DNA from: a virus
Taxonomy: Duplodnaviria > Heunggongvirae > Uroviricota > Caudoviricetes
Reading direction: 5' to 3' (one strand)
IMG/VR virus record: IMGVR_UViG_2839594473_000016
DNA length: 47,271 nucleotides
The position numbers are program-made. Positions within the stretch are counted from its first letter, which is position 1, and every line of letters starts with the position of its first letter. This document shows, piece after piece, positions 1-3,000 of the stretch.

Positions 1-3000
1 TCAGAAGTGACCGTCCAGGCGGTCACCGAACTCGATAATAAAGCGGCTCATTGCCATACGCCAGTCCCGCAGTGGCATCGTCCATTTCTGTGAAGCCGCC
101 TGGATTGCCAGCCACACGACCTTTTTCACTGAGTCATCCGTCGGGAACACCTTGCGTTTTTTGATGGCATGCCGGATTACGCTGTTCAGCGACTCGATGG
201 CGTTGGTTGTGTAGATGACTAGACTGGCCCCCTGAATCTCCAGACAACCAGTATCACTTAAATAAGTGATAGTCTTAATACTAGTTTTTAGACTAGTCAT
301 TGGAGAACAGATGATTGATGTCTTAGGGCCGGAGAAACGCAGACGGCGTACCACACAGGAAAAGATCGCAATTGTTCAGCAGAGCTTTGAACCGGGGATG
401 ACGGTCTCCCTCGTTGCCCGGCAACATGGTGTAGCAGCCAGCCAGTTATTTCTCTGGCGTAAGCAATACTAGGAAGGAAGTCTTACTGCTGTCGCCGCCG
501 GAGAACAGGTTGTTCCTGCCTCTGAACTTGCTGCCGCCATGAAGCAGATTAAAGAACTCCAGCGCCTGCTCGGCAAGAAAACGATGGAAAATGAACTCCT
601 CAAAGAAGCCGTTGAATATGGACGGGCAAAAAAGTGGATAGCGCACGCGCCCTTATTGCCCGGGGATGGGGAGTAAGCTTAGTCAGCCGTTGTCTCCGGG
701 TGTCGCGTGCGCAGTTGTACGTCATTCTCAGACGAACCGATGACTGGATGGATGGCCGCCGCAGTCGTCACACTGATGATACGGATGTGCTTCTCCGTAT
801 ACACCATGTTATCGGAGAGCTGCCCACGTATGGTTATCGTCGGGTATGGGCGCTGCTTCGCAGACAGGCAGAACTTGATGGTATGCCTGCGATCAATGCC
901 AAACGTGTTTACCGGATCATGCGCCAGAATGCGCTGTTGCTTGAGCGAAAACCTACTGTACCGCCATCGAAACGGGCACATACAGGCAGAGTGGCCGTGA
1001 AAGAAAGCAATCAGCGATGGTGCTCTGACGGGTTCGAGTTCTGCTGTGATAACGGAGAGAGACTGCGTGTCACGTTCGCGCTGGACTGCTGTGATCGTGA
1101 GGCACTGCACTGGGCGGTGACTACCGGCGGCTTCAACAGTGAAACAGTACAGGACGTCATGCTGGGAGCGGTGGAACGCCGCTTCGGCAACGATCTTCCG
1201 TCGTCTCCAGTGGAGTGGCTGACGGATAATGGTTCATGCTACCGGGCTAATGAAACACGCCAGTTCGCCCGGATGTTGGGACTTGAACCGAAGAACACGG
1301 CGGTGCGGAGTCCGGAGAGTAACGGAATAGCAGAGAACTTCGTGAAAACGATAAAGCGTGACTACATCAGTATCATGCCCAAACCAGACGGGTTAACGGC
1401 AGCAAAGAACCTTGCAGAGGCGTTCGAGCATTATAACGAATGGCATCCGCATAGTGCGCTGGGTTATCGCTCGCCACGGGAATATCTGCGGCAGCGGGCT
1501 TGTAATGGGTTAAGTGATAACAGATGTCTGGAAATATAGGGGCAAATCCAGATGGATTTATCGTAATAAAGACAACAGCCAAATAATGAAAAACATAAAA
1601 TTTTATCTGCATGGCAAAGAGATACCAGCAGAAAGAATATTAGATACACCAGAGTGGAAAGACTACCGTCCAAAATACTCCGGTTCCACATATAAATATT
1701 CTTAATGATAGCAAAAAATATATTTTCGATATAATCAATGTTATGATTAAAGAGTATTTCATCAGGGCAGGTAAAAACAGAGTAAATCAGCAAAAGAAGC
1801 TGATCTTCAGCGATACTGACACTAACTGACGGTTTAAGCGGTCGTATGAAGCAGCAGCTTTCCGACGGACTGCCATGCGGATCGTTTACCTTTTGGGCTA
1901 TTCCGCCCGTCATCAAGCGGCTCACGAGTACTGAGTTTATCAGGATGATATTGCTGACAATGGTAATTCGTTGACCGATGTGTACTTCACTACATATCGG
2001 TCAACACCGTACTGCCGTGCAACATCTCCAAGATGTAGCATCGTTTTTACCAGAGGAGGCAGGACATAGATTGTAAAAAAACTATTTCGATGCATTTACC
2101 ATTGAGATATTTTCCTTCATACCAAAAGTTCTATCAATTATCGCAAGTGGTTCAACAGGTGCGGTCTTATCTATAACCCAACCACTCTCTGTAACACTTC
2201 CTCGTGTGATATATTTTGCCTTTACTTTAACAACTATTAGATAATGCTCACGACTAAACCGATCAGCAACGCTAAGATCCGATGTGTATTCAGGCAATAT
2301 TCTTCCAATACGTACCTGCTGTTGTGCCATATATTCATCTGGTGCTTTTACATTTGGATTTGAATCAGGAAGCCCTCCAGCAGTTTTATATTCAACGATA
2401 TTTTCAGCTTGAATACCGGTTGTGCCGCGACACAATATGATGTCTGAATCGGACAGTTCTATGTGCCCCTCCTTAATTTTCGAATAAATTTGTTTAATAC
2501 TATGTTCTGGAGTTGGTACTATTTCAGAAGATAAAGCAGGCAACGTGTCTTCAAGCACCGGAGAATCATCGTATATATCCAACAAATCCTCATCATACCC
2601 AATATCTCCTTCTCTTAACTGAGAATACGGTTTATCTATGTATCTAATAACTCCCCCACCATGAAGACCTTCTGATTTATAAAATGTACCATCAGCGTCA
2701 CGAAAGAAATAAACATTAACCTGTTTGTTATTTATAGAATACCTACCTGAATATAATTCCGAATTTGGCTCCTTAGTTAAATCTACTGATTCCCCCTTGT
2801 AGACTATTTTATTTGGTGTCTCTGAAGATATGGGGTTAAAGGATTCTATATATCTATAAAAACCACCGCCAACTTTCTCATAATACCCATACTTAGAAGA
2901 GTTAAGATCTACTGCACTATATCTATTCCCCCCACGATCCTGTTTCATTTCTAATATTTTAGATTGTTTTTCGTTATATATAAAGTCATTACCATCAATT

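Follow-up and report, generated by a model that had tools for sequence, protein, structure and literature searches.

How does a full-length insertion sequence come to lie, without a target duplication, between the truncated remnants of two unrelated genes? The question is raised by a copy of IS2 near the left end of a 47,271-nt viral sequence (Caudoviricetes; IMG/VR record IMGVR_UViG_2839594473_000016), the whole of which is here called the window. Judged by its sequence, the entire 47-kb window is prophage Sp6 of Escherichia coli O157:H7, which extends in it to its own integrase and potC. Positions 1–2100 form the effector-gene end of this lambda-like prophage, adjoining potB, and are 100% identical to O157:H7 genomes including Sakai, EDL933, TW14359 and EC4115; the complete 2.1-kb arrangement with IS2 is present in about 298 genomes. 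An earlier reading of the sequence, the original prediction, had attributed the arrangement to an IS2-associated deletion or rearrangement. We put the probability that an IS2-associated deletion made the junction, with IS2 later inactivated and sometimes excised, at about 0.65. Excision of the dead element was directly observed within O157:H7.

IS2 occupies positions 220–1550 on the plus strand, from TAGACTGG to AAATCCA. In its length (1331 bp), its inverted repeats, its insC/insD layout with an A6G motif and its open OrfB frame with an rve domain, it resembles IS2A of E. coli K-12 MG1655, a member of the IS3 family, from which it differs at seven bases (99.5% identity). The terminal inverted repeats of IS2 are 42 and 41 bp long (PMC3299598), and comparison with K-12 places them at 220–261 and 1510–1550, the right one with the CA-3′ end. 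One of the seven differences falls in the left inverted repeat (A to G at window 251, IS2 position 32), one creates an amber codon in insC, three are missense changes in OrfB (H29Y, A108T and S235N) and two are silent. The insD (orfB) frame is open for 301 codons (634–1539, plus strand); its product matches the NCBIfam model 'IS2 transposase TnpB' over positions 1–301 of 301, and its Pfam rve and rve_3 matches predict an integrase-core (DDE) domain. By its length and near-identity, its inverted repeats with CA-3′ and the rve domain of OrfB, the element is IS2; unlike IS2A, it has neither an intact insC/insD frameshift path to OrfAB nor a 5-bp target duplication. The nearest record from outside O157, within a spread sample of records, is 99.6% identical to it.

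The amber codon arises from a C-to-T change at window 470 (IS position 251), which converts CAG, Gln54 of InsC in K-12 IS2A, into TAG (470–472) directly after ...LFLWRKQY. What is left of insC (orfA; 311–472, plus strand; ECs_1565 in Sakai) comprises 53 codons with the helix-turn-helix part, and the truncated product matches Pfam HTH_Tnp_1 and positions 1–53 of 121 of NCBIfam 'IS2 repressor TnpA'. The A6G slippery site for the –1 frameshift (628–634, plus strand) is intact and identical to that of K-12, but lies downstream of TAG; OrfAB therefore cannot be translated from this copy, as the original prediction had concluded when it placed TAG after this very peptide. Translation from the insC start would yield only a 53-residue helix-turn-helix peptide, and neither full-length InsC nor OrfAB. 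A 63-mer centered on TAG matched 4058 records in all, 300 of them exactly and 3581 with one to three mismatches, and TAG is not carried by the other roughly 3750 matching records. Given that the approximately 300 TAG records equal the number of genomes with IS2 at this locus, the amber codon is private to the locus.

A sequencing or assembly artefact is a vanishingly improbable explanation of TAG, as is the view that this IS2 variant normally carries it: about 300 independently sequenced complete genomes share it, K-12 IS2A as a reference has CAG, and the RefSeq/PGAP annotation itself flags the stop. The element is annotated as a repeat region in Sakai, and in EDL933 as a pseudogene with 'programmed frameshift; internal stop'. 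Each sampled O157:H7 genome has one IS2-matching place. Since this sole copy carries the amber codon, IS2 is immobile in O157:H7.

At the ends of the element, the 5-mers differ as originally described, with ATGAC (215–219) on the left and GATGG (1551–1555) on the right. The same end definition applied to K-12 IS2A as a control gave ATTAC on both sides, a perfect 5-bp duplication, and the IS2 ends are therefore correctly set. Consequently, shifting the ends to restore a duplication was ruled out, and redefinition, which might have explained away the mismatch, gave no 5-bp duplication in register. A 5-bp direct repeat, AGATG, does lie beside IS2, but out of register. The left copy (213–217) is separated from the left inverted repeat by 2 bp, and the right copy (1550–1554) consists of the last IS2 base followed by GATG; the segment between them is 1332 bp, that is, IS2 plus 1 bp.

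The left flank (1–219, minus strand, stop codon at 3–1) is the 3′ remnant of an IS256-family transposase gene. Homology runs from 219 down to 4, covering positions 296–336 of 338 of the NCBIfam IS256 model (E = 4e-10) and positions 332–377 of 379 of Pfam Transposase_mut (PF00872; E = 3e-8), and the DNA shows 100% identity to the 3′ end of the gene in strain M9, where a complete copy of 402 codons is present. Only the last 72 of these codons are kept and the first 330 are absent, so that no complete IS256-family element is present; RefSeq labels the remnant 'transposase, missing N-terminus'. In M9 the gene runs on across the breakpoint as ...GTAGATGAC|TTTGCGG (GATGAC|TTTGCGG). The remainder of the gene was not found to the right of IS2, where the flank is effector sequence: positions 1551–1705 (plus strand) encode the last 51 codons of an EspK/GogB-family effector (NCBIfam EspK, positions 403–453 of 453), with about 402 codons absent. 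Full-length EspK/GogB homology is thus lacking, and RefSeq labels this remnant 'GogB, missing N-terminus'. The 3′ end of an intact espK paralogue 2.5 kb away is about 95% identical to it, with the similarity beginning exactly at 1551, and the paralogue reads ...GAATTAC|GATGGATTTACCG (TTAC|GATGG) at the breakpoint. Both the IS256-family assignment of the left flank and the absence of its 5′ part across IS2, as first proposed from the sequence, were therefore upheld. The two remnants lack their 5′ parts, each cut at an IS2 end. By comparison with the intact sequences, the missing DNA would include a minimum of about 1 kb from the IS256-family element, the 5′ part of the nleB-like gene interrupted by that element, and about 1.2 kb of the espK paralogue.

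The nleB′-IS256′-espK′-espN arrangement was found in 358 genomes, 59 of which are without IS2. In these 59 the same two remnants are fused, in two forms that we call S and L. Compared with the IS2 allele, which reads GTGTAGATGAC[IS2]GATGGATTTATCG, form S keeps two fewer IS256-family bases at the left junction and form L one fewer. Form S, which reads GTAGATGGATTT / GTGTAGATGGATTTATCG, occurs in 12 genomes, namely O145:H28 strains RM12761 and RM13516, several strains without a stated serotype, and O157:H7 strains 272, 3-5-1 and 08-3918. It equals the IS2 allele minus the 1337 bp between AGATG at 213–217 and AGATG at 1550–1554, the two copies being the end points of the deletion. Form L, which reads GTAGATGATGGATTT / GTGTAGATGATGGATTTATCG, occurs in 47 genomes, of which the named strains are O111, with OkiPb01689 also among the carriers; it can be derived from the IS2 allele by removing the 1334 bp between two GA dinucleotides, or from form S by adding a GAT triplet. 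The IS2 allele itself was observed only in O157:H7-type genomes, and the IS2-less alleles in O145:H28, O111 and other backgrounds. An IS2 in an intact IS256-family element would read CAAATCCAATGACTTTGCGG, one in an intact espK paralogue TTACGATGGTAGACTGGCC and an IS2-less fusion retaining AC GTAGATGACGATGGATT, and GTAGATGACTAGACTGG is the string that would go with CAG at insC codon 54.

The three O157:H7 carriers of form S allow the order of events to be read within one serotype. IS2 with TAG was found in lineages Ia (Sakai, EDL933), Ic (9000, 155), I/IIa (TW14359, EC4115) and IIc (350, 644); common to all sampled lineages, the amber codon is therefore older than the loss of IS2. Strain 272 belongs to sublineage I/IIa, as do EC4115 and TW14359 (PMC7200060), and strain 3-5-1 to lineage I/II (supplement of PMC8743559). 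A whole-prophage alignment comprised the window, Sakai, TW14359 and the three IS2-less strains 272, 3-5-1 and 08-3918. In it, these three agree with IS2-bearing TW14359 at 109 variant sites where Sakai and the window differ from them, and they share five further single-nucleotide polymorphisms (SNPs) seen in none of the other aligned prophages. The resulting tree is ((window, Sakai), (TW14359, (272, 3-5-1, 08-3918))). With the IS2-less strains nested among IS2 carriers, the 1337-bp gap is a single derived loss; three independent losses are ruled out by the five private SNPs. Import of form S into 272 from an O145-like prophage was likewise rejected. Its whole prophage has the lineage I/II haplotype, and O157-specific SNPs lie on both flanks of the IS2-less junction, so that the element was lost in place. 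The dead IS2 was thus lost secondarily, between the AGATG repeats, in three O157:H7 strains forming one lineage I/II subclade.

As TAG is present in all lineages and IS2 has a single place in the sampled O157:H7 genomes, this loss took place without IS2 transposase. For the transposase-independent excision of Tn10/IS10, precise or nearly precise, slippage between short direct repeats has been proposed (cited in bioRxiv 10.1101/2023.06.07.543989). Here too, an element with terminal inverted repeats was lost between short direct repeats, 1337 bp apart, with no transposase; unlike in IS10 excision, the AGATG repeat is not an in-register target duplication, given that one copy overlaps the last IS2 base and 2 bp separate the other from the left end. 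By analogy with IS10, the loss likely proceeded by slippage or microhomology joining between the AGATG repeats. A second known route is excision promoted by IEE, which occurs in O157:H7 and O111:H8 (PMC9943667). It resembles the present case in removing IS3-family elements from O157:H7 with 2–5 bp of microhomology at the joints (PMC9943667; bioRxiv 10.1101/2023.06.07.543989), but it is reported to need the element's own active transposase, which the window IS2 lacks. IEE as the cause of the loss in this subclade is unlikely, because its excision of IS3-family elements in enterohaemorrhagic E. coli is reported to be transposase-dependent (PMC9943667) and the sole IS2 cannot make OrfAB. We came across no mention of a test of IEE on IS2 itself.

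These alleles enable us to propose a putative history of the junction. Initially, an IS256-family element would have inserted in an nleB-like gene, with an espK/gogB paralogue to its right. IS2 may then have inserted either in the IS256-family transposase gene at ATGAC or in the espK paralogue at GATGG. The intervening DNA would then have disappeared either in an adjacent deletion, through intramolecular transposition from one IS2 end, or through recombination of two IS2 copies, leaving IS2 without a target duplication between two remnants that lack their 5′ parts. Two steps visible in the data would follow: the C-to-T change that makes InsC Gln54 amber, upstream of the frameshift site, and the 1337-bp AGATG–AGATG deletion that removed the dead IS2 in the lineage I/II subclade and left form S. 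In O145:H28, O111 and other backgrounds, S and L would be excision scars of a similar kind, L having arisen perhaps via the 2-bp GA repeat, or from S by slippage of a GAT triplet.

Several observations support a deletion by IS2. IS2 ends at the very base where the right breakpoint falls and shares no microhomology there with the espK paralogue sequence TTAC|GATGG, and the AC to the left of IS2 continues the intact IS256-family sequence GATGAC|TTTGCGG. In addition, the sole IS2 of O157:H7 is carried on a horizontally acquired prophage, and loss of IS2 to form S was directly observed. Other points weigh against it. Neither pre-deletion state, IS2|ATGACTTTGCGG or ...TTACGATGG|IS2, was found among 5426 genomes; the queries joined the IS2 right end to ATGAC and the IS256 continuation, or espK-like sequence up to GATGG to the IS2 left end, and no record reached the cut-off of at least 80% query coverage for either. 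IS2 must also have been lost at least once more, outside O157:H7, and the AGATG repeat flanking the 1332-bp segment must be a coincidence, with a chance of roughly 1–2% (about 20 plausible registers × 1/1024). Moreover, with the IS2 allele restricted to O157:H7-type genomes and the IS2-less alleles widespread, simple event counting favours a late insertion of IS2. Since three O157:H7 strains lost IS2 secondarily, the IS2-less alleles do not by themselves refute a deletion by IS2; the deletion is partly supported, and not proven either.

The late insertion can be spelled out as follows. An ordinary deletion at the 4-bp microhomology GATG, which stands as GTA-GATG-ACT in the IS256-family gene and as TAC-GATG-GAT in the espK paralogue, would give form S directly, and IS2 would have inserted there later, in the O157:H7 ancestor. 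This requires fewer events in view of the IS2-less alleles in several serogroups and the confinement of the IS2 allele to O157:H7, and it accommodates the perfect 5-bp AGATG repeat around a segment of IS2 plus 1 bp, given that IS2 makes 5-bp duplications and that its functional minicircle has a 1-bp spacer (PMC3299598). Reasoning from the allele sequences, we found no register in which an in-register 5-bp duplication produces the observed junctions from S or L; an older fusion therefore fits only with an out-of-register minicircle. The 1332-bp segment would then represent a minicircle and its 1-bp spacer, cut open one base off register (A, spacer C and IS2 lacking its last A), with AGATG as the genuine 5-bp target duplication and the loss in the subclade of 272 as a textbook precise excision. 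Such an event would demand cleavage after CC at the right end, rather than at the conserved CA-3′, and 2 nt outside the left end, but the mechanistic account of IS2 describes cleavage at the abutted termini and nothing out of register (PMC3299598). In addition, the only IS2 of the genome must have hit the precise site of an earlier deletion, the spacer C must by chance match the next IS256-family base (1 in 4), and copy-out-paste-in transposition keeps the donor copy, yet there is no other IS2 in O157:H7. On balance we regard a fusion that preceded IS2 as doubtful, and simple insertion of a minicircle opened one base out of register into an older IS256′/espK′ fusion as distinctly improbable. 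If true, the latter would document, in a natural genome, that an IS3-family transposase integrated its element out of register.

An inversion or translocation between two IS2 copies, which would place the reciprocal junction (the IS256 5′ half beside an IS2 end) elsewhere, is a generic result of recombination between insertion sequence copies, and O157:H7 does hold further sequence of this IS256-family element. That second copy (L011, positions 5782–9440, in strain 17B6-2) lies in another prophage, adjoins nleG7 and is split by the IS66-family element ISEc8, with its 3′ and 5′ parts both kept and no IS2 nearby. A search for the missing 5′ half, as the original prediction had suggested, therefore returns a match in O157:H7, but from this separate copy. 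The companion search for the matching IS2 flank returned nothing: no IS2|ATGAC-TTTGCGG junction occurs in any of the 5426 genomes. With a single IS2-matching place in the sampled O157:H7 genomes as well, we consider such an exchange very improbable, and a reciprocal rearrangement is close to excluded. Accordingly, of the deletion or rearrangement originally proposed, the deletion stands as the best explanation, but not a proven one, and the rearrangement is not supported, the sampled O157:H7 genomes having no second IS2.

Seen against known systems, a deletion by IS2 would be in familiar company. Insertion-sequence-associated deletions in E. coli O157:H7 are well documented for IS629 (PMC9943667). 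The present case is like them in having an element between truncated unrelated genes, without target duplication, in a prophage effector region, but the element is IS2, now dead, and the searched genomes contain no pre-deletion allele. By analogy with those deletions, the situation would be that of a typical insertion-sequence-associated deletion scar in an O157:H7 prophage. The element is a case of ordinary genome decay, already annotated as a pseudogene with an internal stop; a familiar insertion sequence from the most thoroughly studied enterohaemorrhagic E. coli genomes, it is in itself of little significance. The sole copy being amber in all sampled lineages, IS2 has died out as a mobile element in O157:H7. 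Whether a strain has or lacks the dead IS2 cleanly marks one lineage I/II subclade and is phylogenetically informative. Of greatest interest is this transposase-independent loss, in which an insertion sequence was removed without its transposase via a deletion between 5-bp repeats. The IS2-less alleles also advise caution: a missing target duplication and mismatched flanks alone do not settle the order of events.

Two minus-strand frames cross the ends of IS2. Sakai ECs_1563, annotated as an 'outer membrane pore protein' of 153 codons (window 1464–1925), runs from the espK′ remnant region into the right end of IS2 and is almost certainly a spurious gene call. At the other end, a chimeric 117-codon open reading frame (1–354) starts with GTG within IS2 and continues through the left end into the IS256-family remnant; judged from the reading frame, its product could in principle consist of residues from IS2 joined to the 72-residue tail of the transposase.

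The whole-prophage alignment brought out further variation in Sp6. The roughly 109 sites that split the window and Sakai (lineage I) from TW14359, 272, 3-5-1 and 08-3918 (lineage I/II) are mostly clustered in the tail genes (11810–18700), and this cluster looks like a recombination block rather than point mutation. TW14359 has 44 private SNP sites, most within 20691–20893, and strain 272 has 13, most within 26188–26253, which suggest small gene-conversion patches from other lambdoid prophages. TW14359 also lacks window 33149–35826 (2678 bp), where RefSeq has a RusA remnant fused to the remnant of another gene.

A 1310-bp IS3-family element at 15286–16595, with ends TGAACCGCCCCGG...CCGGGGCGGTTCA, interrupts the tail tape-measure gene of the window. 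It has the size and ends expected of IS629 and is probably that element. Unlike the window IS2, it is a normal simple insertion, with a clean 3-bp target duplication (ACT at 15283–15285 and 16596–16598). Since it is missing from Sakai, TW14359, 272, 3-5-1 and 08-3918, it is strain-specific. At about 5500–9900 (ECs_1558 to ECs_1560 in Sakai), the tail module ends at a truncated tail-assembly gene directly joined to espX7/nleL and espN. A lambda-like phage should have host-specificity (J) and tail-fibre genes there, but Sp6 has neither, which points to a further large deletion at the start of the effector region. In strain 3-5-1, a 1-bp deletion at window 5071 shifts the reading frame of espN.

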